Notes: generated from the letters alone by a model not told the origin. DNA of 64,000 nt from Candidatus Latescibacterota bacterium (GCA_965207885.1 OZ242311.1:5568001-5632000), one strand, 5' to 3'; shown: positions 12,295 through 29,550, counted from the stretch's first letter. Numbers and translations are program-made.

Positions 12295-13398
12295 TTAGCC
12301 CCTGTCTTCTATTGGCACATAATCTCGCGCCTCTACCCCCGTGTATTCCGCCAGAGGCCGAATCAGTCTATTATCCGCCCGCTGCTCCACCACATGAGCA
12401 GCCCAACCACTGCAACGACTGAGCACAAATATGGGCGTGAAAAGCGCCGTCTTAATACCGGCCATGTGATACGCTGTTGCCGAATAAAAATCCAGATTTG
12501 GAAACAACTTCTTCTCATCCCACATAACCCGCTCAATCGCTTCAGAAATCTCGTACAGACGCATATCGCCCATTGCTGCACTCACCTGACGCGCCCAATC
12601 TTTAATAATCGCATTGCGCGGATCTCGCACGCGATAAACCCCGTGCCCAAACCCCATAATCAATTCTCTGCGCGCCAGCATCTCTCGCACACCTGTTGCC
12701 GCGTCTTCGGGCGTCTCGAACTGCTCGATCAATTCCATTGCCCGCTCATTTGCGCCCCCGTGCAAAGACCCGCTCAAAGTGCCAATAGCCCCGGTAATAC
12801 ATCCATAAAAATCGGCAAGCGTAGAGGCGCATACCCTCGCCGTAAATGTCGAGGCATTAAACTCGTGCTCGGCATATAAAATCAACGACGCATCCATCAT
12901 CCGACATTCCAACTCCGAAGGCGTCTCCGATTTGAGCATATGCAAGATATAAGCCGCGTGATCATCCACATCCACATCCAAAACATCGGCACCTATATGC
13001 CAGACCCCCAGCATAGAGGGCAATGCACCCATAAGCCGCACAGCCACAGCTACGCCATCTCCCAAATCCCGCTCAGGCTCGGCAATGCCAAGTGCCGATA
13101 CACCGGTTCGCAAAACATCCATCGGATGTGCGTCTGAAGGCAGCGAACGCAGAATCCGCACAACCAAATCTGGCAACTGCCGGTGCGCTCGCAACTGCGT
13201 TTTCAACGCATCCAATTCTCTCTCAGTGGGCAACTTCTCCCACAACAACAAATGCACGATTTCCTCAAAACAGGCATATTGTGCCAGGTCTTCAATCGCA
13301 TAGCCCCGATAGTGCAAACCGTGACCTTCTGCGCCTACAGTACAAATCGACGTACTGCCAGCCTTAACCCCTCTCAAACCTGTCGTCTGTTTGCTCAC
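12295..13398 (-). CDS. prpC: 2-methylcitrate synthase
   Basis: LHYRGY, HPMDVLRT, YAEHEFNASTF, LHGGANE, IMGFGH, PNLDFY; between prpB and prpD. Confidence 0.92.
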   Translation of the reverse strand: MSKQTTGLRGVKAGSTSICTVGAEGHGLHYRGYAIEDLAQYACFEEIVHLLLWEKLPTERELDALKTQLRAHRQLPDLVVRILRSLPSDAHPMDVLRTGVSALGIAEPERDLGDGVAVAVRLMGALPSMLGVWHIGADVLDVDVDDHAAYILHMLKSETPSELECRMMDASLILYAEHEFNASTFTARVCASTLADFYGCITGAIGTLSGSLHGGANERAMELIEQFETPEDAATGVREMLARRELIMGFGHGVYRVRDPRNAIIKDWARQVSAAMGDMRLYEISEAIERVMWDEKKLFPNLDFYSATAYHMAGIKTALFTPIFVLSRCSGWAAHVVEQRADNRLIRPLAEYTGVEARDYVPIEDRG

Positions 13399-13412
13399 AG
13401 TATCCTCCTCTC

Positions 13413-13449
13413 AAAAAAAGGCCGTGAGCATTTTTACTCACGACCTTTT
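13413..13449 (-). terminator. terminator-like hairpin between prpB and prpC
   Basis: Minus AAAAGGTCGTGAG-taaaaatg-CTCACGGCC-TTTTTTT directly before the prpC SD. Confidence 0.6.
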
Positions 13450-13472
13450 CCCGTAAAATCTCCTCAGGCGAT

Positions 13473-14342
13473 TCACGCGCCATAAAGTCGATTGACCTGC
13501 GCCTCATACCCGTAATAATCCAGCAATTCGTAGAGTTCTTCACGCGTCTGCATCTCGTTTATCAACGCGCCCTGCACGCCCTGTGTCCGCAGCGTTTTAT
13601 ACGCCCGATAAGCAGCTGCATTCATCATTCTAAACGCCGTGAGAGGATACAACACCATGGCGACATCCGCACCTCTCATCTCGTCCAGATCAAACAGAGG
13701 CGTTTGTCCAAACTCGGTGAGATTCGCCAGCACAGGTACAGAAAGCCTTTGGGCAAAGGTGCGGAAATCCTCCAACGAACACAGTGCTTCTGCAAAAATC
13801 GCATCCGCACCCGCGGCAATGTATTCCCGGGCGCGATTGAGACCGCACGCCAAACCCTCATTGGCCACAGAATCCGTTCGCGCCATAATCACAAACCCGC
13901 TGTCTGACCGCGCATCGACCGCTGCTTTGATTCGGTCGCACATCTCCTCGGCAGGTACCACCTGTTTTCCCGGGCGATGTCCACACCGTTTTTGCAATAC
14001 CTGGTCTTCAATATGAACAGCGGCAACGCCAATTTTTTCCAGCGTCTTTACCGCGCGACCAATCGAAAAAGAAGTGCCGCCGAACCCGGTATCGATGTCA
14101 ACCAGCAGCGGTAAATCCACCACATCTGTAATCCGCCGGGCATCCTCGACCACATTATCCAGCGTTGTAATGCCCAAATCGGGCAAACCATAAGAGGCAG
14201 CAGCCACGCCCGAACCAGAAAGATAAAGCGCGCGAAAGCCCGCTTGTTTTGCCATAAGCGCAGATACGGCATTGATAGTACCCACAATCTGCAAGGGTCG
14301 TTCTGCGCCCAGTGCCTCCCTGAACCTGCGCCCGGCTGACAT
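13473..14342 (-). CDS. prpB: 2-methylisocitrate lyase
   Basis: LYLSG, GLPDLG, VDIDTGFG, HIEDQ..KRCGHRPGK, MARTD; second ATG (14342) fits the AAGGAG SD. Confidence 0.95.
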   Translation of the reverse strand: MSAGRRFREALGAERPLQIVGTINAVSALMAKQAGFRALYLSGSGVAAASYGLPDLGITTLDNVVEDARRITDVVDLPLLVDIDTGFGGTSFSIGRAVKTLEKIGVAAVHIEDQVLQKRCGHRPGKQVVPAEEMCDRIKAAVDARSDSGFVIMARTDSVANEGLACGLNRAREYIAAGADAIFAEALCSLEDFRTFAQRLSVPVLANLTEFGQTPLFDLDEMRGADVAMVLYPLTAFRMMNAAAYRAYKTLRTQGVQGALINEMQTREELYELLDYYGYEAQVNRLYGA

Positions 14343-14356
14343 CGCCATCTCCTTAT

Positions 14357-14600
14357 CAAATAGCCCGTAAAACCCATTGACGGTATTCTCTCATTAAAAT
14401 ATATTATAATTATAATTTAGGTATGAGGTTCTGCACAAAATGATACCGCCCGTGTAGGTAAAACCTGGGGGTCATCCCCTTTTTGGGATGCTTTCACCCA
14501 GTGAACATGATACATTGCTTTGCCCATTGGTCCAGGACGATGTACCAAGGCGGGGTTAATCGCCGAGAAGCCCAACTCGTTCACGGTTGGGAGTCGTCAC
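14357..14600 (+). mobile_element. 244-bp non-autonomous IS200/IS605-family mini-element (left-end remnant, promoter, reRNA-like scaffold, right end)
   Basis: CTTAT|CAAATAGCCCGTAAAACCCA resembles the left end at 28475; right end GAAGCCCAAC-tcgttcacg-GTTGGGAGTCG-TCAC; removal gives fusA GCA TAA overlapping the prpB SD. Confidence 0.75.
14377..14405 (+). promoter_or_regulatory. sigma70-like promoter inside the mini-element
   Basis: TTGACG-N17-TATATT. Confidence 0.6.
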
Positions 14601-16678
14601 GCTTCTACCAATTCGCGATCGTGTTCGGACGCCTCAATAACCTTTTGGGTCACATCGTGGGGAGCAGACTCGTAGTGTGAAAACTCCATGGTATAATCGC
14701 CTGTGCCCTGCGTCATAGAACGAAGGGAGGTCGAATACTTGTAAAGATCGGCCAGTGGAACCTCAGCGTGAATGACCTGGAAATTGCCTTCGGGATCCAT
14801 ACCTTGAATGCGCCCGCGTCGCCCATTGAGATCCGCCATCACATCCCCCATATAGGAATCGGGAACAACGACGTGAACTTTATAAATAGGCTCTAACAAA
14901 ATGGGCCTAGCATCCATAAATGCATTTTGAAATGCGAAGGAACCGGCCAGCTTAAAAGCCATATCAGAAGAATCAACCGGATGGAAGGACCCATCGTAAA
15001 CCGTGACCTGTGTATCGACAACGGGATACCCGGCGAGCACACCGCGTTGCATGCATTCCACGACCCCCTTTTCAACAGCCGGAATAAATTTCCCGGGAAT
15101 CGCACCGCCTACGACCTCGTCAATAAATTCAAAGCCATCACCGCGCTGCCTGGGCGCAATGCGCAAATAAGCTTCGCCATATTGACCGCGTCCACCGCTT
15201 TGTTTTCTGTGCCGATACTGCGCTTCTGCACGCGATTGGATGGTCTCGCGGTACGGTATTCGCGGTACGGTCACCTCTACATCCACGCCAAACTTGCTCT
15301 TCAACTTGTCAAACACAACCGTCAAATGCAACTCGCCCTGTCCCTGGGCAATAATCTGACGCAATTCCGCGTCATACCCGGCGACAAAGCTCGGATCTTC
15401 TTCGTGAATGCTTTGCAATCCCGTGCTAATTTTGTCTTCGTCGCCACGCGATTTGGGTTCTACGGCCACGCGAATCAAAGGATGTGGAAATTCGACCGAC
15501 TGAATTTGCAAACGCGTGTTTCTGCTGCAAAGCGTATTGCCCGTATGCGTATCCTTTAGCTTGATCAACGCGCCAATATCGCCCGCGCCCACAACGTCCA
15601 TATCCTCGCGCTTTCCGCCACTCATCGAATAAATTTGACCGATGCGCTCATTGGCACGGCGATTGGGATTAAAGACATCGTCGCCAGATTGGACACTGCC
15701 GGAATACACGCGCAAAAATGACAGATCACCCACAGACTCGGAAATCGTTTTGAACACCACGGCAGCCAAAGGATCATCATCGCTTACAGTAAGTGCCACT
15801 TCTTCTTCAGACCCTTCTTTATATGCCGTGGGAATTGGCAGGTCGAGCGGACCCGGCGCAAAGGAAGACAAAAAATCGAGCAATAAATCAACACCGATAT
15901 TTTTGCTGGCAGCACTCACAAAAATGGGAAACAAGGTGCGATTGCCCATCCCGTTTTTTAATCCTTGTGCGATCTCTTCATCTGTCAATTCCCCTTCTTC
16001 TAAATAGCGCTCAATCAAATCGTCGTCACTTTCGGCAGCCCCTTCAACCACCTGTTCCCTCAAGTCCTCAGCCTGATCTTGCCATTCCTCGGGAATCTCC
16101 GAAGCCTCAGCTTTGCCATCGGTATAGGTTACCAATTTCATCTGCAAAACATCGATGATCTGATTAAACCCTTCACCGGCATTGACCGGAATCTGAAAGG
16201 GAACAGCCCCATTTCCAAAATGCTCCTGAATTGCTGAAACCGCACCATCGCAATCGGCAAATTCTCTATCGACGTGATTGATTAAAAACACAGTTGCGCG
16301 ATTAAATTCATCGGCAAAACCAAATGCCTTATCCGTCCCAATCTCCACACCACTGGCCGCATTGACCAGCGTAAGGGCAATATCAGATGCCCAAATCGCG
16401 GTTTTTGCATCGCCAATAAAGTCGGCATAACCAGGAGCATCCAGAATATTTATTTTGGTGCCCTTCCAATCGCAGTGCAACATGGATGTACTGATAGAGA
16501 TTTTGCGCTCAACCTCTGCATCGGTATAATCCGACAGCGTATTTCCCTCATCCACAGACCCGAGTCGATTGGTCGCACCGGCAGAAAACATCACGGCTTC
16601 GGCAACGGACGTTTTGCCCGTGCCGCCGTGTCCCGACAGGGCGATGTTCCTGATATCTTCAGGTGTGTATCTATTCAC
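14597..16678 (-). CDS. fusA: elongation factor G paralogue (EF-G2-like)
   Basis: GHGGTGKTS, LDAPGYADF, GELHL, PYRETI, KQSGGRGQYG; GTG start with AAGGAGG SD; not in an rpsL-rpsG-tuf operon. Confidence 0.9.
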   Translation of the reverse strand: MNRYTPEDIRNIALSGHGGTGKTSVAEAVMFSAGATNRLGSVDEGNTLSDYTDAEVERKISISTSMLHCDWKGTKINILDAPGYADFIGDAKTAIWASDIALTLVNAASGVEIGTDKAFGFADEFNRATVFLINHVDREFADCDGAVSAIQEHFGNGAVPFQIPVNAGEGFNQIIDVLQMKLVTYTDGKAEASEIPEEWQDQAEDLREQVVEGAAESDDDLIERYLEEGELTDEEIAQGLKNGMGNRTLFPIFVSAASKNIGVDLLLDFLSSFAPGPLDLPIPTAYKEGSEEEVALTVSDDDPLAAVVFKTISESVGDLSFLRVYSGSVQSGDDVFNPNRRANERIGQIYSMSGGKREDMDVVGAGDIGALIKLKDTHTGNTLCSRNTRLQIQSVEFPHPLIRVAVEPKSRGDEDKISTGLQSIHEEDPSFVAGYDAELRQIIAQGQGELHLTVVFDKLKSKFGVDVEVTVPRIPYRETIQSRAEAQYRHRKQSGGRGQYGEAYLRIAPRQRGDGFEFIDEVVGGAIPGKFIPAVEKGVVECMQRGVLAGYPVVDTQVTVYDGSFHPVDSSDMAFKLAGSFAFQNAFMDARPILLEPIYKVHVVVPDSYMGDVMADLNGRRGRIQGMDPEGNFQVIHAEVPLADLYKYSTSLRSMTQGTGDYTMEFSHYESAPHDVTQKVIEASEHDRELVEA

Positions 16679-16792
16679 TGTAACCTCCTTAATATCATTA
16701 TCAAATACTCGTTTTGAAATTCGGAAAATAAGGCGCGTATAATTGCAAAACAAACGGGTTTTGTCAAGTACTCTTTTGATCTTGTATAACAC

Positions 16793-16828
16793 AAAAAAAA
16801 GCCCGGATATAAAAATCCGGGCTTTTTA
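16793..16828 (-). terminator. rRNA operon terminator (bidirectional)
   Basis: A8-GCCCGGAT-loop-ATCCGGGC-T5. Confidence 0.85.
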
Positions 16829-16833
16829 AAATT

Positions 16834-16950
<117 letters not shown>

Positions 16951-17019
16951 AAAATTTAATTGAATACGAATTGAGCACCAAACAAAGCACAGAAGCGATC
17001 TGCTGAAAAATGTATAAAA

Positions 17020-20050
<3,031 letters not shown>

Positions 20051-20185
20051 AAACAAGTTTTCAGCAGATCACTACTGTGCTCTGCAAAGAATCCATACTT
20101 CAGTTTGGCGAATTTATACCCAATTCATATTCAATTGTCAAAGAGCAGTCGGGAAATTCCCGAAAGTTCTGTAAAAATACAACTT

Positions 20186-20261
20186 TGGTGGAGATAACCG
20201 GGATCGAACCGGTGACCTCCGGCTTGCAAAGCCGGCGCTCTCCCATCTGAGCTATATCCCC
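20186..20261 (-). tRNA. tRNA-Ala(TGC)
   Basis: GGGGATATAGCTCAG..TTGCAA..GGTTCGATCC..CTCCACCA. Confidence 0.96.
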
Positions 20262-20276
20262 AAATATTTTGTAATT

Positions 20277-20353
20277 TGGTGGGCCTAAGTGGAGTTGAAC
20301 CACTGACCTCGCGCTTATCAGGCGCGCGCTCTAACCAACTGAGCTATAGGCCC
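20277..20353 (-). tRNA. tRNA-Ile(GAT)
   Basis: GGGCCTATAGCTCAGTTGG..CTGATAA..GGTTCAACT..GGCCCACCA. Confidence 0.96.
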
Positions 20354-20443
20354 GCCTTAAAAACCAAATAACGTGCACATGCCAAACCTGGTATTGACCT
20401 TAGGAGTAGATGTAAGCGCCTGTAGCCTTACATCGCGTCTCCC

Positions 20444-21993
<1,550 letters not shown>

Positions 21994-22100
21994 AAAAATG
22001 AGAGTGCCCATATATTATGGGCTTTTTTTTGCAAATACTGAATTCCCAAGAAACCTTGAGAACCTACCAAGCTTTTGAATAACACATGCACGTTATTTGA

Positions 22101-22113
22101 TTTTCAAAGAACA
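22101..22113 (-). promoter_or_regulatory. rrn leader boxA antiterminator
   Basis: TGTTCTTTGAAAA on minus strand; second copy TGCTCTTTGACAA near 20135-20147. Confidence 0.7.
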
Positions 22114-22217
22114 AAATAGGCACTCTTGACTTACAAAGTGCCGGTGAAGAGTAAATCTATCAAATCGACTTTCGCAAGTCAAGCAAAATTCTGCACCATT
22201 TTGGGTGCAGAGCGCGA

Positions 22218-22246
22218 AATATATAAAATAGAACCTCAAATGTCAA
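22218..22246 (-). promoter_or_regulatory. rrn promoter
   Basis: TTGACA-N17-TATATT followed by a GC-rich discriminator. Confidence 0.75.
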
Positions 22247-22252
22247 ATCTTT

Positions 22253-22735
22253 TCAGAAAAACTCCCCTCTCACACGACCTTCTTCAACATCTGCTTCGCC
22301 ATCAAACTGCTTCAAATAGCGCACTGCCCGCTCCATATCTTTTTTTACCCATGCATCGGATTCAGACGCCATAGCGCGTTCGAGTGCTAAAATGGCTTCC
22401 GGCTCTTCAATTTGCATCAATGCCCAGGCAACAATCTGGCGCACATCCCGATCTTTGTCTCCAAGCATTCGGATCAGATCGCGCAATGCCTCCTTCGCCC
22501 GCAACATTCCCAACGCCCAGGCGGCTTTTGTGCGCACAGATGTGACAGAGTCGCGCAAAGCAGCGCGCAAATGGGGAACAGCCTCAAAAACTCGCTGTGC
22601 ACCCAAAAAGGCAGCCGCATCAACGCGCTGATCAACCGTCCCCGATCGCAATTGCCGAAGATAATCGCCATGTGGAGAGCTACAGCCACATAAAAAAAGC
22701 AAAAGTACTGGCAGTATTTTTTTTATCGAATACAT
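22253..22735 (-). CDS. HEAT-repeat lipoprotein
   Basis: Lipobox LCGC; repeats L.D...VR..AAWALG. Confidence 0.8.
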
Positions 22736-24012
22736 GCTTTCAGAGCTTCGTAATTTGCCTTTATAGTCTCGTCAATATCCGCGTCAGAATGAGCCAGAGA
22801 GACAAACGCAGCCTCAAACTGCGACGGAGCCAGATAAACACCTCGATTGAGCATCTCCCGAAAATATCGGGCGAACAAATCCTGATCACACGCATTGGCG
22901 GCATCGAATGACGTCACAGGTACTTCCGTAAAAAACAAGGTCATAATCGACCCCACCCGATTGGTCTGATATTTCAATCCCAGAGCTTTTAAGTTTTCCG
23001 AAATACCAGTCTCCAGAGCCTGCGATTTTGCCTCCAACACCTCATAAACACCCGGTTCTTGCAGGCGTTTGAGCATCTCATATCCCGCTGTCATAGCCAG
23101 GGGATTGCCCGACAATGTGCCAGCCTGCGACACCATTTTTCCCAGAGGTGAAATATCTGACATAATTTCTCGTCTGCCACCAAAAGCACCAACGGGTAGC
23201 CCACCGCCAATAATCTTCCCCAGAGTCGTCAAATCAGGCGTCACCCCATAATGCTCCTGCGCACCACCCTGACTGACGCGAAACCCTGTGATCACCTCGT
23301 CAAAAATCAGCACAATGCCCATTTCTGCCGTTATATCTCGCAAACCCTGCAAAAACCCCGGCGCTGGCGGAATCACCCCCATATTGCCAGCCACAGGCTC
23401 AACAATAACAGCGGCGATCTCATCCCTATTTTCCACAACGGCTTTTTTAACAGCTTCCAGATCATTAAAAGGCACAGTAATCGAATCCGCTGCAGTTCCA
23501 GGTGTAACCCCCGGACTGCTCGGCGCGCCCATCGTAAGTGCTGAAGACCCCGCCTGAATCAGAAAACTATCGGCATGCCCGTGCCAGCATCCCTCAAATT
23601 TGACAATTTTGTTTCGCCCCGTGTGTCCGCGAGCCAGCCGAATAGCCGACATCGTGGCTTCGGTACCCGAATTTACCATCCGCACCATTTCCACGCTCGG
23701 CACCATTTCAGTGACCAATTGGGCCATCTTCACTTCGATTTCTGTCGGCGCGCCAAAACTCGTGCCCCCAGCAGCCGCTGCATTCACAGCCGCGACAATT
23801 TCCGGATGTGCATGGCCCAAAATAAGCGGTCCCCAGGACCCCACAAAATCGATATAAGATTTTCCATCGGCATCGACAATTCGCGCCCCCTTTCCTTTCA
23901 CAATAAAGAGCGGATCACCACCTACGGGGCCAAATGCTCTTGCGGGACTATTCACACCGCCGGGAATCACCTGTTGTGCTGCGTCAAATAGCGTTTTTGA
24001 ACGCGTATTCAA
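22723..24012 (-). CDS. hemL: glutamate-1-semialdehyde 2,1-aminomutase
   Basis: [48 protein letters not shown]. Confidence 0.96.
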
Positions 24013-24100
24013 ATTACACCTCCGTGAGAAGACAAATAGAATTTCGAGACAACATCTTAATTACACCTCTCACTGTATCCTGTCAAGCTAATTCCTCCGC

Positions 24101-24129
24101 TTGCAAAACACGATCACAATCCGTATATT
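24101..24129 (+). promoter_or_regulatory. promoter for tRNA-Arg (and possibly uvrA)
   Basis: TTGCAA-N17-TATATT. Confidence 0.65.
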
Positions 24130-24138
24130 ATCTGCACA

Positions 24139-24212
24139 GCGGCAGTAGCTCAATTGGACAGAGCATCTGGCTTCGGACCAGAGGGTTGGGGGTTCGAGTC
24201 CTCTCTGCCGCA
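24139..24212 (+). tRNA. tRNA-Arg(TCG)
   Basis: Acceptor GCGGCAG/CTGCCGC, D arm GCTC/GAGC, anticodon arm TCTGG-CTTCGGA-CCAGA, GGTTCGAGTC; CCA not encoded. Confidence 0.92.
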
Positions 24213-24267
24213 CTTTATTTTTCAGGCACTTAAATTTTAAGTGCCTGAATTTTTTATCATCACACCT

Positions 24268-27015
24268 ATGAGCGATACAATCACCATCAGAGGTGCGCGT
24301 CAGCACAACCTCAAAAACATCGATCTGGACATACCGCGCAACTGCCTCGTCGTCATCACCGGACCCTCAGGGTCGGGCAAATCGTCCCTGGCCTTCGACA
24401 CCATCTACGCCGAAGGACAACGCCGTTATGTGGAATCGCTATCCGCTTATGCGCGGCAATTTCTCGATCTCATGGACAAACCCGATGCCGACAGCATAGA
24501 AGGTCTCTCACCTGCTGTGGCAATCCAACAACGCGGCATCCCCCGCACACCGCGTTCAACAGTCGGCACCATAACCGAAGTCTATGACTATTTGCGTCTC
24601 TTATTCGCCAGAATAGGCACGCCGCATTGTCCGATATGCAGCCAGCCCATTGTGCGCCAGAGCGTCGCGCAAATTGTCGATCGCGTACTCGCACTGCCCG
24701 AAGGACAACGCCTTCAGATCCTCGCGCCCCTGATCCGAAATACCAGAGGCACCCACCTGAGTGTTTTTAACCAGTTGCGCAAGGAAGGCTATCTCAGGGT
24801 GCGCGTCAATGGCGAAGTTCTATCACTGGATAGCGATATCGTTCTCGATAAAAACACAGCGCACAACATCGAAGCCGTCATCGACCGCCTCGTCGTGCGC
24901 ACGAACATGGCCGCGCGCCTCGCGGACTCACTCGAAACAGCCCTCGACCTTGCCAACGGCACAGCCACACTCGACATTATCGACGATGGGGAATGGACGT
25001 TTTCCACGCGCTTTGCCTGCACAGAAGGCCACTTTGAAATCGAAGAAATAGAACCCCGTCTCTTCACCTTCAACAGCCCGCACGGTGCTTGTCCCACTTG
25101 CAGCGGTATGGGCACTGTTTTTGAAGTCGATCCCGACCTCGTCGTGCCCGACCCTTCAAAATCCATCCTCGAAGGCGCGATTGCGCCCTGGGGCATCCCC
25201 AAGGGCAAACGCCAGGTAGAACAACTTCAACGCCTATCGCGCAACCTCTCATTCGATCTCTCAGCGCCCTTTTCCAAACTCTCCAAAACCGTCCAAAGAG
25301 TAATACTCAGAGGAAAAACAGGCGTCATACCCGATCTCCAGCACCAATACAAAACGGCTACATCCGACGAAGCGCGGGAAAAAATCGAGCTTTTTATGCG
25401 CGAGCAAACCTGCCCCGACTGCCAGGGCGCGAGATTGCGGCCAGAAGCTCTTGCCGTCACAATTTCCAATTGTACAATAGCCGACATTGCCAGCATGCCC
25501 ATTGAAAAAATCAGGCACTTCTTTCAAACCCTGGACCTCAAAAATAACGCAGCTGAGATCGCCGCCCCCCTCACACGCGAAATCGAAAACCGCCTCGCAT
25601 TTCTCGTCGATGTCGGTGTGGGGTATCTCGCGCTCAACCGCAGAGCCGCAACGCTTTCAGGTGGTGAATTTCAGCGCATTCGCCTCGCCACACAAATCGG
25701 AACCCGCCTCGTCGGTGTTCTCTACGTACTCGACGAACCCAGTATAGGCCTGCACCCCCGCGACAATCGCAAACTCATCGACACCTTCTGCAACCTGCGC
25801 GACCTGGGCAACACGGTCATCGTCGTCGAACACGACCGCGAAGCCATGCAAATGGCCGATCATCTCATCGACCTGGGCCCGGGCGCGGGCGAACACGGCG
25901 GCAAAATCATCTCACAGGGACCGCCAGAAACCGTAATCGCAGACAAAAATTCTCTCTCCGGCAATTATCTCGCCGGTCGAAAAACCATCCCCCTCCCCCC
26001 CGACATTCGCCACCCCCGCGGGCATCTCTCAATCAGAGGCGCCAGCGGACACAACTTGCAAAACGTCAATATCGATATTCCCCTGGGCGTCTTTGTATGC
26101 GTTACCGGCGTATCTGGCTCGGGCAAAAGCTCGCTCATCAATCACACCCTGTATCCCGCGCTCGCCCGACAACTCCACCGCGCCAGCACAGAACCATTGC
26201 CTCATAAATCTATCGAAGGCGTTGAACAAATCGACAAAGTCATTCGCATAGACCAATCCCCAATCGGGCGCACCCCGCGATCAAATGCCGCCACATACAC
26301 GGGACTCTTCACAGCCATACGCGAACTCTACGCCCAATTGCCCGAATCCAGAGTGCGCGGTTATGGCGCCGGGCGCTTCAGCTTCAACATCAAAGGCGGG
26401 CGCTGCGAAGCCTGCCAGGGCGATGGCGTGCGCCGCATCGAAATGCACTTCCTCCCCGACGTATTCGTCACCTGCGACGTATGCGGTGGCAGCCGATACA
26501 ACAGAGAAACCCTCGAAATCCGATACAAAGGCAGTTCAATAGCCGATGTCTTAAACCTCACAGTAAATCGTGCCCGCTCCTTCTTCCGCAACATCCCGGC
26601 GGCGCAGCGACAACTCAAATCACTCGCCGACGTGGGCCTGGGTTATTTGCGCCTCGGTCAACCGGCCACATCCCTCTCTGGCGGCGAGGCACAGCGCGTC
26701 AAACTCGCAACCGAACTGGCGCGAACCGCCACGGGCAAAACGCTTTACCTCCTCGACGAACCCACCACGGGATTGCACTTTGACGACATCCGCGTCCTCA
26801 TCGAAGTCCTCGACCGCCTCGTTGACCGCGGCAACACTGTTCTCATCATAGAACACAACCTCGACGTCGTCAAACGCGCAGACTGGGTCATCGACCTCGG
26901 ACCCGACGCAGGCGAAAAAGGCGGCAACATCGTCGCAACCGGCACGCCAGAAACCATCGCCCAAAATCCATCTTCCCACACGGGCCGTTTCCTCAAAGAA
27001 ATTTTAACCCCTTGA
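24268..27015 (+). CDS. uvrA: excinuclease ABC subunit A
   Basis: GARQHNLKN, two Walker A (GSGKSS), two LSGGE signatures, zinc fingers. Confidence 0.97.
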
Positions 27016-27117
27016 CGTACTCCCAAAGCTAAAGCATTGGGATTATAGAATCTTGTAGCTTCAGCAGGGATTGTGGTATCAACGGTAGTTGCTTGCTTCC
27101 CCGAAGTTCGGCAAGTC

Positions 27118-28224
27118 TTACGCTACCTCCGCCAGAGGTGGACGCCCCCACCTGTGAATGTTTATCGCCGCGTTGAGGTCTCTGTCTATTTCAAGACCAC
27201 ATTCGCAACAATGGAATGTTCTCTCTCGCAATTCGAGGTCGTCTTTAACAGTGTCACAAGCAGAGCATGTCTTTGACGTGGGTAGCCATTGGTCAATTTG
27301 TTTGACAGCCTTGCCAGTCTTTTGTGCCACATACTTGAGTATGTTCAAGAAGTCTGAAAAGCCCAAATCGCTAATCTTTTTGCCCCACAACGCTTTCATG
27401 GCGTCTATGTTCAGCGTTTCAAAATACATGACGTCATATTCTTTACAGAGTTGATGGGCAAGTTGCCAGTGATAGTCTCTGCGCTGATTGGCAACGCGCC
27501 TATATTCTCTGGCAAGACTTACTCTCGCTTCATGACGGTTATGGCTACCTTTCTTCTTACGAGAAAGATTGCGATTAGCCTTTTTGACTTTCCGCGAATT
27601 ACGATTGAAGAACAATGGCGATTGTGTCCTTGTGCTGTCTGAGGCTGTTAGATATGTTTGCAAGCCAAAATCAAAACCTGCGGTTTTACCGTTCTTGATC
27701 ATGAATGACTTGATACCCTCAGCCTTTGCAACAACACATAGCCACAAATCGCCTACGCGGTCACGTTTGATTGTGACCATCTTGATACGCTCTACATCGA
27801 ACTTTCTGCTCTTATGGTATCTGAATATACGCTTGCCAATACGCACCTTGTTACGCTCAAGGAATTTATATCCTGCTTGCTTCAGCGTATAGGACTGATA
27901 TCGAAAGCGAGACCTGAATGTGGGCGGACGCTTATTATCTCTGGCAAAGAATTTCTGATAGCCAAAGTCTATACGCTCAATCACATTTTGCAATGCCTGT
28001 GACGGCAACAAACGCCAATGTGCAAAGCGTGTTGTTCTTTTCAGCTTTGCCAAATGGTTAATCATTGTGAACTTACTCGGATATTTGCCAAAACGCCGAT
28101 AGTATCGCTTATGCAAAGCAATGAAATGATTATACACCTCAGCAAAAGCGTCTATCTCATAGTGCAGATACTTATTGCGGTCACAGAGACTATACATTTT
28201 GTATTTGTATGTCAAGTATTCCAT
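27118..28224 (-). CDS. tnpB: RNA-guided nuclease TnpB
   Basis: RuvC D (GFDFGL), E (FETLNI), D (DRDLNAAINI); Zn ribbon CSAC..CCEC. Confidence 0.93.
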   Translation of the reverse strand: MEYLTYKYKMYSLCDRNKYLHYEIDAFAEVYNHFIALHKRYYRRFGKYPSKFTMINHLAKLKRTTRFAHWRLLPSQALQNVIERIDFGYQKFFARDNKRPPTFRSRFRYQSYTLKQAGYKFLERNKVRIGKRIFRYHKSRKFDVERIKMVTIKRDRVGDLWLCVVAKAEGIKSFMIKNGKTAGFDFGLQTYLTASDSTRTQSPLFFNRNSRKVKKANRNLSRKKKGSHNRHEARVSLAREYRRVANQRRDYHWQLAHQLCKEYDVMYFETLNIDAMKALWGKKISDLGFSDFLNILKYVAQKTGKAVKQIDQWLPTSKTCSACDTVKDDLELRERTFHCCECGLEIDRDLNAAINIHRWGRPPLAEVA

Positions 28225-28230
28225 AATGTA

Positions 28231-28259
28231 AATATACATAAAAACAGTAACTTATGCAA
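28231..28259 (-). promoter_or_regulatory. tnpB promoter, probably giving a leaderless mRNA
   Basis: TTGCAT-N17-TATATT with only 6 nt to the ATG at 28224; no SD. Confidence 0.55.
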
Positions 28260-28400
28260 TTTTTATGTGGTCTATGAACGGATGATTTTAGTTGATGAAG
28301 TGCTGGCGCACTTGTACACCGCTCCACCGGCCACATTGCCTTGAGCAATGTGCCACCATGCTAAGCATGTTCCGTGATGATTTTACACGGAAGCAACCCC
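28250..28400 (+). pseudogene. possible deleted IS200 tnpA remnant
   Basis: Fragments ILVDEV and HL..APP resemble Y1 transposase; no intact HUH or catalytic Tyr. Confidence 0.35.
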
Positions 28401-28536
28401 CCATAAATTCTATGCGCTTCGCCATGCGACCCAACGCTAAAGCTCTCTGCTATTGGGTTTTACGCGCAGTTTCTGATAAAAAAAAGCGCTCCATAACTTA
28501 CTGGAACGCTTCTTTTATTCTATAGATCCCCACCAC

Positions 28537-29550
28537 CTATTTCCGCTCATCGTATTGCCGTCTGTAATACTCTCGATAACCCGCGCTATCCCGAATTTTT
28601 CGCCACCAATCTTCATTGCCCAAATACCATTCAACCGTCAGGCGCAATGACTCTTCAAAATTGTACTTTGGCTTCCACCCCAGCGCCATAATTTTCGACG
28701 CATTCAGAGAGTACCGCATATCGTGCCCGGGCCGATCGGCCACATGCTGCATTAAATCTTTCGGCTTCTCCAAATACTCCAGAATCTTTTCCGCAACAGA
28801 AAGACCATCCGCTTCATTCTCACCCCCCACATTATACGCCTCACCCTGCGCGCCCTTGTGCAGCACCAGATCAATCGCCTCGCAGTGATCCGTCACATAA
28901 AGATGATCGCGAATTGCCGTCCCTGCGCCATACACGGGCAATGCAAGATCATCCATCGCATTGGTAATATAAATGGGCACGCGCTTCTCGGGATATTGAA
29001 ACCCCCCAATATTATTGGACGCGCGCGTAATCACCACGGGCAAACCATACGTAATGGCAAACGCCCGCGCCATCATATCCCCCGACGCTTTCGCCACCGC
29101 ATAGGGATTGCGCGGTGCAATTGGTGCATCCTCCGTCCACGGATCTTCGTCCTCTTCCAGAGACCCATACACCTCATCTGTACTCACCTGCAAAAACCGC
29201 TCAACACCGCAATCTCGCGCTGCAGCGAGCAACGTGTACACACCCAGTGCATTGGACTTCATAAACTCCTCGGCACCCATAATGCTCCGATCAACATGGC
29301 TCTCCGCAGCAAAATTCACCACCAGATCAACCCGCTGCATCAAATCATTCACCAACCCGGCATCGCAAATATCCCCCCGCACAAATTCATACCGGGAATC
29401 GTCCACAACATCCAGCAGATTGTCCAGATTGCCCGCGTACGTCAGCTTGTCCAAATTGATAACTCGATAATCGCGATACGCATCGAGAACATATCGCACA
29501 AAATGGCTGCCGATAAACCCGGCACCTCCTGTAATGAGCATTGTCTTCAA
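28537..29550 (-). CDS. rfbB: dTDP-glucose 4,6-dehydratase
   Basis: TGGAGFIGS, DKLTYAGN, FAAESHVDRSI, VSTDEVYG, Y..AK, DRPGHD.RY. Confidence 0.93.
   Translation of the reverse strand: MKTMLITGGAGFIGSHFVRYVLDAYRDYRVINLDKLTYAGNLDNLLDVVDDSRYEFVRGDICDAGLVNDLMQRVDLVVNFAAESHVDRSIMGAEEFMKSNALGVYTLLAAARDCGVERFLQVSTDEVYGSLEEDEDPWTEDAPIAPRNPYAVAKASGDMMARAFAITYGLPVVITRASNNIGGFQYPEKRVPIYITNAMDDLALPVYGAGTAIRDHLYVTDHCEAIDLVLHKGAQGEAYNVGGENEADGLSVAEKILEYLEKPKDLMQHVADRPGHDMRYSLNASKIMALGWKPKYNFEESLRLTVEWYLGNEDWWRKIRDSAGYREYYRRQYDERK

Follow-up and report, generated by a model that had tools for sequence, protein, structure and literature searches.

The DNA stretch analysed here, 64,000 nucleotides of the genome of a Candidatus Latescibacterota bacterium (the window below; the host genome is G000), carries two elements of the IS200/IS605 family, each of which lies at the very 3' end of a gene and provides that gene with its stop codon (Table 1). 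The larger element, of 1464 bp, closes uvrA, and the smaller, of 244 bp, closes a gene for a GTPase of the elongation factor G (EF-G) family. At both sites a TAA stop has been exchanged for TGA and only the wobble base of the last sense codon has changed. A type and B type denote the two TnpB subfamilies of the element family.

Table 1. Features at the two insertion sites, in window coordinates
Feature	Position	Strand	Remarks
uvrA, 924 aa	24241..27015	+	open reading frame (ORF); UvrA_inter, UvrA_DNA-bind and ABC_tran domains (Pfam); present end CCT TGA
A-type IS200/IS605 element, IS1341-like, tnpB only, 1464 bp	27012..28475	-	left end 28475, right end 27012
tnpB, intact, 373 aa	27118..28239	-	Pfam OrfB_IS605 (PF01385) and Cas12f1-like_TNB (PF07282); no internal stops
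Right cleavage tetranucleotide TCAA	27012..27015	-	+ strand T-TGA, the new wobble base and new uvrA stop
Right subterminal hairpin CCCAA...TTGGG	27022..27041	-	10 nt from the cleavage point, as in IS608 (by sequence)
Left subterminal hairpin of the 1464-bp element	28430..28457	-	by sequence
Target TTAT, the left cleavage site, outside the element	28476..28479	-	+ strand A-TAA, the former uvrA wobble base and stop
EF-G-family GTPase gene, fusA-like, longest ORF	14597..16792	-	five EF-G domains; present end GCG TGA
Non-coding derivative of the same family, 244 bp	14357..14600	+	of the palindrome-associated (PATE) or miniature inverted-repeat (MITE) transposable element kind; family left-end start; right end like the B type
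Target TTAT	14353..14356	+	- strand A-TAA, the former EF-G-like stop, then GGAG and the ATG of the next gene
Right cleavage tetranucleotide TCAC	14597..14600	+	- strand G-TGA, the new wobble base and new stop
Right subterminal hairpin of the 244-bp element	14571..14591	+	by sequence
Phosphoenolpyruvate (PEP) mutase/isocitrate-lyase-family gene	13473..14348	-	once 8 nt downstream of the EF-G-like stop; the 244-bp element now lies between

Stop codons supplied by element ends

The + strand from 27012 onwards matches the reverse complement of the family right end ...TTTGGGAGTACGTCAA, and from 28476 it reads ATAAAAAAAAGCGC; on the minus strand the sequence across the 28475/28476 junction is ...TTTTTTAT|CAGAAACTGCGCGTAAAACCC. 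Removal of 27012..28475 yields ...ACC CCA TAA AAAAAGCGC, in which uvrA ends CCA TAA. The 373-aa TnpB encoded within the element matches the ISDra2 TnpB structures 8bf8, 8exa and 8h1j over its full length (E 8e-35), and G000 holds seven more full-length A-type copies with 91-94% DNA identity to this element and two at about 80%. At the EF-G-like gene the 244-bp element starts CAAATAGCCCGTAAAACCC right after CTTAT and finishes GGGAGTCGTCAC. Removal of 14357..14600 gives GTAGAAGC|ATAAGGAG, that is, GCA TAA, a GGAG ribosome site and the ATG of the PEP-mutase-family gene. The initial annotation had given CCT TGA and GCG TGA as the present gene ends and CCA TAA and GCA TAA as the ends on deletion, all of which can be read directly; that the right end TCA(A/C) supplies N-TGA and leaves both proteins unchanged is likewise read from the sequence.

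The same annotation had called the second gene fusA. Its assignment to the EF-G family holds, with all five domains, but the gene is not necessarily the canonical fusA, since it is a paralogue directly downstream of a complete rRNA operon (16833..21993, minus strand; 16S, two tRNAs, 23S, 5S). As the longest ORF begins only about 40 nt past the 5S rRNA gene (16833..16949), the true start of the EF-G-like gene is probably further in.

Empty alleles of both sites, which had been predicted, are found in genomes of the same genus. The uvrA site reads TTAACCCC|ATAAAAAAAAGCGC in relatives G007 and G010, followed by the same downstream hairpin as in the window, and G004 is near-identical (the three alleles can also be written CCCC|ATAAAAAA); the other 17 relatives have different uvrA 3' ends. 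At the EF-G-like site G008 reads GTAGAAGC|ATAAGGAG (also given as GTAGAAGC|ATAAGGAGATG) and G014 reads GTAGAGGC|ATAAGGAG (also given as GTAGAGGC|ATAAGGAGG), the remaining relatives carry ATGA, ATAG, GTGA or GTAA at the stop, and the 244-bp element is absent from all 19 relatives that hold this gene end. Metagenomic data add a 469-nt contig from run X5 (depth 4.2, shorter side 89 nt) that joins 27011 to 28476, skipping exactly 1464 bases, and a contig from run X1 that spans the junction of uvrA and the right end by 30 nt. Two further swap sites in G000 have empty counterparts: the HtrA-like gene reads AAA AT|A TAA GGAT..ATG in 7 of 20 relatives, and the glycosyltransferase gene reads TGG AA|A TAA in 18 of 20, among which G009 is an exact empty allele with a left flank identical to that of G000. 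Across relatives and the metagenome contig, bases were neither gained nor lost at insertion. The element boundaries are fixed by these alleles together with 27 family right ends, and they bear out the annotation's claim that the elements insert 3' of (N)TTAT without target duplication.

Both gene ends vary within the genus in other ways. Most same-genus relatives (loci L149 and L152-L160) have other sequence at the uvrA 3' end, with tandem-like ..GATGACGCGGATTAA.. repeats and a TAA in every unit; the C-terminal and stop region of uvrA is thus a variable spot independent of the transposon. The EF-G-like ends of G003, G015, G017 and G004 (L179, L180, L184, L186) show 2-4 tandem 8-mers (ATAGACGA) right at the stop, with a TAG in each. 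The GTGA found at this stop in G020 and G010 was considered as an excision footprint and rejected: the relatives vary (ATAA, ATGA, ATAG, GTAA, GTGA), point mutations suffice, and excision by TnpA would restore TTAT.

Recurrence of the swap and excess over expectation

G000 (6,228,721 bp, one contig, 51% G+C) contains 27 family right ends at 26 unique sites (one lies in an apparent segmental duplication, described below), and two further copies with a slightly different right end bring the total to 28 unique elements. Six of the 28 are stop swaps: besides uvrA and the EF-G-like gene, an element TGA closes the genes for an HtrA-like protease (490 aa), a NAD-binding protein (244 aa; target TTAG), a glycosyltransferase-like protein (365 aa) and a BrnA antitoxin (86 aa). 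The last codon changed synonymously in all six (CCA>CCT, GCA>GCG, ATA>ATT, GAC>GAT, AAA>AAG, GTA>GTG), the chance of a synonymous outcome being 9/14 to 13/14 per site. Three ORFs of 110-124 aa that end at an element TGA (G000 4549500, 5999300 and 5400550) have no Pfam match and an odd composition and were not counted as genes. The A-type copy on the HtrA-like stop (676771..678032) has lost its left end, similarity beginning at element position 203, and the gene that lies downstream in relatives is no longer adjacent, which points to a deletion or rearrangement after insertion.

A wider sample was obtained by scanning for the right-end motif in one genome per species. It comprises at least 115 stretches, 80 of them with 1700-bp flanks, mostly from metagenome-assembled genomes (MAGs) titled Candidatus Poribacteria and Latescibacterota and some from Chloroflexaceae and Caldilineaceae. 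All counts from this sample refer to the matches listed, among which 79 junctions have at least 1000 nt of flank and 77 are unique relative to G000. Eleven of the 77 are swaps at long or Pfam-supported genes, which encode a MoxR ATPase, RecQ, an HTH (helix-turn-helix) protein, a PMT-like protein, a DUF4340 protein, a TSP3-repeat protein, NadC (nadC), a Gcw_chp protein and a PhyH protein; the remaining two are ORFs of 503 and 295 codons without a Pfam match. Pooled with G000, 17 of 103 junctions are swaps, at 17 different genes. Loci L093 (105 codons, no Pfam match) and L102 (whose flank falls short of the filter) do not enter these counts. Left ends were located at part of the loci, since those of elements that exceed the 1700-bp flank, or that have a different left-end sequence, are missed; the last-codon comparison accordingly leaves out L061, L094 and L106, whose left ends are not fixed, and the TTAC boundary of L034 and L105 is placed from an AAAG guide. 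With that boundary, L034 is a likely swap that changes Met to Ile.

The position of the swaps is sharp. Among convergent ORFs of at least 120 codons that end between -300 and +120 nt of a junction, 18 of 67 end exactly at the element TGA; two of these look spurious, and every other offset holds at most 3.

The neutral expectation was derived from two versions of our own crude gene caller, run on G000 (4885 and 5066 genes; 89% coding). There are 44,118 TTAT sites in the genome, with 575 or 595 at a gene's TAA stop and 7,679 or 8,639 in non-coding DNA, and stop sites make up 7.0% or 6.4% of the TTAT sites that do not interrupt a gene. Measured against 6.4%, the six swaps among 28 copies have a binomial P of 0.008 and the pooled 17 of 103 a P of 3e-4, which is rough, as the G000 null is applied unchanged to other genomes. 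The stop enrichment that the initial annotation had anticipated among other copies is thus present, as a 2.6-3.3-fold excess over non-coding TTAT sites; it is real but modest, and the related genomes are not fully independent. Small numbers per genome and a home-made gene map as the null would favour the view that the two window sites are chance hits and the excess is not real, but this is very improbable: 6/28 and, independently, 11/77 both stand against 6.4% expected, both gene-caller versions agree (7.0% and 6.4%), and the spike falls at the exact stop position.

Other copies are less benign. The B-type copy at 253728..255099 splits an ABC-transporter ATPase gene, with ABC_tran positions 1-48 before and 56-137 after the element. 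The copy at 2663357 was inserted at TTAT|GA and destroyed the TGA of a GFO_IDH_MocA oxidoreductase gene, whose reading frame now extends 12 codons into the left end; such split-stop sites are used at 1 of 64 positions in G000, compared with 5 of 595 stop-swap sites. In two or three further genes the reading frame continues for about 20 nt into a right end. Three of the swaps are at closely spaced genes of an operon, where the next start codon follows after 8 nt, 13 nt or, in most relatives, one base, and these insertions are not obviously free of polar effects.

Cleavage sites, guides and the origin of the excess

The left junctions follow TTAT in 19 of 22 rows, the remainder being TTAG, TTAC and CTAT, and one further copy follows TTAA. 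Of the 27 right ends tabulated, 13 are TCAA and 14 TCAC, and two extra copies end ATCAC. CCCA...TGGG hairpins stand about 17 nt inside the left end, and the right cleavage point lies 9-10 nt past the hairpin foot. Covariation between cleavage sites and putative guides is extensive: among 135 right ends, GAAT accompanies TCAA in 56 and GAAG accompanies TCAC in 48, and the base before the right hairpin foot is complementary to the last base of the cleavage site in 126 (T:A 75, G:C 51, other 9). On the left, guides AAAA, AAAG, AATC and AAGT go with targets TTAT, TTAC, TTAG and TTAA, respectively. The guide sequences of IS608 are AAAG and GAAT. Family variants differ only at the fourth base of target and right end, with TTA and TCA fixed, and the covariation indicates that each cleavage site consists of a constant trinucleotide, TTA or TCA, and a fourth base set by the guide. 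The two trinucleotides are complementary to TAA and TGA, and the variable base coincides with the host wobble position.

IS608 (ISHp608, Helicobacter pylori) also inserts as a single strand 3' of a tetranucleotide without duplication and has subterminal hairpins and guides; its ends are TTAC on the left and TCAA on the right, 10 nt from the hairpin foot, each paired with a 4-nt guide, and the window family shows the same geometry and the same covariation of the fourth base (PMC3201880). With TTAC/TCAA, IS608 would produce the same register, G-TAA to T-TGA. Unlike in IS608, the target here is mostly TTAT rather than TTAC, and most copies carry tnpB only or nothing. The part of PMC3201880 consulted does not mention a stop-codon swap.

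These properties suggest how the swap arises. A Y1 TnpA supplied in trans would paste the top strand of the element 3' of TTA-N, mostly TTAT, by single-strand "peel-and-paste", and the element ends TCA-N (TCAA or TCAC). Because TTA and TCA read TAA and TGA on the opposite strand, insertion on the complement of an N-TAA at a gene end automatically replaces the stop with an in-frame TGA and alters only the wobble base of the last codon. This mechanism is fully explained by known IS200/IS605 chemistry. We consider it fairly probable that the stop swaps are such an automatic by-product of the cleavage-site motifs of the transposase, and that near-neutrality has enriched them among surviving copies, most other TTAT sites lying in coding or regulatory DNA; even non-coding TTAT sites would include promoter -10 boxes (whose complement holds TTAT), ribosome sites and terminators. 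The by-product view is favoured by the occurrence of the same TTA-N/TCA-N pair in IS608, by the TCAG ends of IStrons that have TTTAT or ATTAT targets and by TTTAT as the known motif of ISGst2; the motifs look inherited from transposase recognition chemistry. As the cause of the excess we infer survivorship, rather than design or intrinsic targeting.

Several observations weigh against survivorship. To act by itself, it requires that purging has removed a large share of the insertions in non-coding DNA. Per-site use is 5/575 at stops and 15/7679 at non-coding sites (Fisher's test, first gene map; odds 4.5, P = 0.010), and stop-swap sites are used about 3-fold above their share of non-coding plus stop TTAT sites, where the null is the home-made gene map of G000 carried over to other genomes. 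Three swaps sit in tight operon junctions, where polarity should be no less costly than an insertion between genes, and several surviving copies lie in divergent promoter regions. The six swaps in G000 are all synonymous, which a design would also predict.

The initial annotation had gone further and proposed a safe-harbour strategy at gene ends. Its motifs and the excess stand, but a co-evolved strategy is not shown, and the 2.6-3.3-fold excess could be survivorship. In its evolved form, selection on the element would keep TTA-N and TCA-N for the sake of the TAA-to-TGA swap, opening thousands of nearly neutral sites in a compact genome, with tunable fourth bases that leave the last codon synonymous. 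The excess over non-coding sites, the spike of 18/67 and the synonymous last codons would all be expected of it, as would the mapping of constant and variable cleavage-site positions onto stop and wobble, with per-site use highest at stops. Only the fourth base varies among family variants while TTA and TCA are fixed, a TCAC end makes an A-to-G wobble change that the genetic code renders synonymous for 13 of 14 sense NNA codons, and the same register is seen, in the parts of the sources consulted, in IS608 with TTAC/TCAA (PMC3201880) and in IStrons with TTTAT targets and TCAG ends (PMC4227781). Yet base-pairing and structural recognition of the cleavage sites predict the same conservation without any role for stop codons (PMC3201880, in the part consulted), only 16-21% of copies are at stops, other copies break or extend genes, and one likely swap, at the inferred boundary of L034, turns Met into Ile. 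Overall we regard an evolved safe harbour as rather unlikely. The broader proposition, that the whole IS608-like clade shares a stop-for-stop design in which TTA and TCA are held by selection as complements of TAA and TGA and the fourth bases fall on the wobble position, is similarly doubtful; if true, stop codons would be preferred neutral landing pads, which would help explain the abundance of these elements in compact genomes.

A different source of the excess would be an intrinsic target bias, in which TTAT sites at gene 3' ends are hit more often through single-strandedness or context during replication or transcription and the TGA is incidental. The excess over non-coding sites agrees with it, as does a slight preference for T or C at the base preceding TTAT, and a need for single-stranded targets is established for IS608 and ISDra2 (in part from PMC3201880, consulted in part). 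However, the preference for the fifth base is similar at stops and elsewhere, and the data point to no specific accessibility mechanism; such a bias seems to us clearly improbable. By-product formation with survivorship fits the data at least as well as the strategy reading.

Partial parallels exist in several known systems, each compared here with the part of its source that was consulted. ISGst2 of Geobacillus stearothermophilus (TnpB2) is a TnpB-carrying IS605-family element whose transposon-adjacent motif, or target, is TTTAT (bioRxiv 10.1101/2023.03.14.532601), but its host belongs to a different phylum and the likeness is by description, not by sequence. Group A IStrons (CdISt1-like) insert after TTGAT, ATTAT or TTTAT and end TCAG, a TGA complement in the same register, and in-frame stops at their insertion point have been noted (PMC4227781). 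IStrons neutralise insertions by RNA self-splicing, whereas an Rfam scan found no ribozyme in the window elements. The haloarchaeal PATEs are non-coding IS605 derivatives with fused ends, down to about 50 bp, comparable to the 244-, 47- and 52-bp copies here, but they belong to a different lineage and the part consulted reports no link to stop codons (PMC3119063). The nearest precedent for element ends that supply gene ends, and a partial one, is found in Borrelia lipoprotein genes, where IS605 flank sequence makes up the last 8 nt of a coding region, including its TAA; the authors liken the IS605 stem-loops to other small repeats that overlap gene 3' ends (PMC2775950). There, unlike in the window elements, the left flank overlaps the gene, and stop-for-stop replacement, empty-site proof and a frequency estimate are absent from the part consulted (PMC2775950). 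The elements fall outside the site-specific safe-harbour class (Tn7 at glmS; integrases that rebuild a gene 3' end), since 17 different genes serve as sites, four bases are recognised and the only host coding sequence carried is T/G-TGA.

In their own right the elements are routine, new members of a known family; recurrent and verified, the stop swap is apparently unreported, as no statement of a TAA-to-TGA swap by IS200/IS605 elements was found in the consulted parts of the full-text literature (subscription journals and supplements lay outside the scope). It amounts to a rule, by which an IS200/IS605 element with target TTA-N and right end TCA-N fits any N'-TAA stop at almost no protein cost. 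This rule may help explain how tens of TnpB-element copies are accommodated in a genome that is about 89% coding, and element-derived TGA stops are to be expected by annotators. Beside a swap copy, the flank-derived guide region is antisense to the last codons of the host gene. An intrinsic or adaptive origin of the excess at stops, if established, would mean a new principle of target choice in a family ancestral to Cas12; on present evidence the swap is a neat, modestly enriched corollary of known chemistry.

The element family in G000 and beyond

Intact tnpB copies in G000 number 20 and fall into two subfamilies; one more copy is truncated. The A-type copies measure about 1.46-1.51 kb and carry the window TnpB (nine intact, with 80-100% protein identity, and the truncated one); B-type copies, of about 1.28-1.40 kb, comprise eleven intact ones, whose TnpB shares 27-30% identity with that of the A type and also matches the ISDra2 TnpB structures over its full length (E 2e-51). 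The sole PF01797 match in the genome (125 bits) is a Y1 transposase at 1450928..1451281, in a 142-aa open frame inside an 1810-bp tnpA+tnpB copy. Both window elements lack tnpA and would need TnpA in trans. Membership of the IS200/IS605 family (IS605/IS1341 groups) follows from TnpB, a Y1 TnpA in the family, subterminal hairpins without terminal inverted repeats, insertion 3' of a fixed 4-5-nt motif without target duplication and guide pairing, the last seen as sequence covariation only.

Non-coding derivatives measure 235-292 bp, apart from two copies of 52 bp (886362..886413) and 47 bp (5438596..5438642) in which a left-end hairpin is fused to a right-end tail. The window element at 14357..14600 is of the PATE/MITE kind, being non-coding, bounded by family left and right ends and present at several sites; a related copy at G000 5999009..5999300 is 84% identical over 182 bp.

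An Rfam scan of 13000..29500 (E <= 1) placed no RNA family on either element and no guide RNA (omega RNA), and on the strand of the host gene a terminator scan gave no terminator-like site at the right end of either element. Terminator- and promoter-like matches inside the 1464-bp element are at about the level of shuffled sequence, and those inside the 244-bp element are too few to judge. The latter are consensus matches only: a sigma-70-like promoter match (10/12) at 14377..14405 (+), a short G+C hairpin followed by TTTTT at 14467..14479 on the top strand (+), and a weaker promoter-like match on the host-gene strand, 14534..14507 (-), which could feed the downstream PEP-mutase-family gene.

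Neither an origin nor a terminus stands out clearly in the GC-skew and gene-strand profile of G000. Contig C1 has several duplicated blocks of 1-8 kb, shared with 95-98.5% identity between about 66-108 kb and about 6.155-6.207 Mb, which include a B-type element with identical flanks (84177 and 6165585); they are either a true segmental duplication or co-assembled strain variation. Contigs were aligned for runs with shares of at least 0.2 of the stretch; those from the RNA runs X15 and X16 derive mostly from other copies of the family and are evidence of neither transcription nor read-through. The right-end motif recurs in the MAGs of the four titles given above, and among the 20 public runs in which some of the stretch is present, ten carry the label sponge metagenome, with two marine runs and one coral run besides, which hints that the element family is shared among members of one community.

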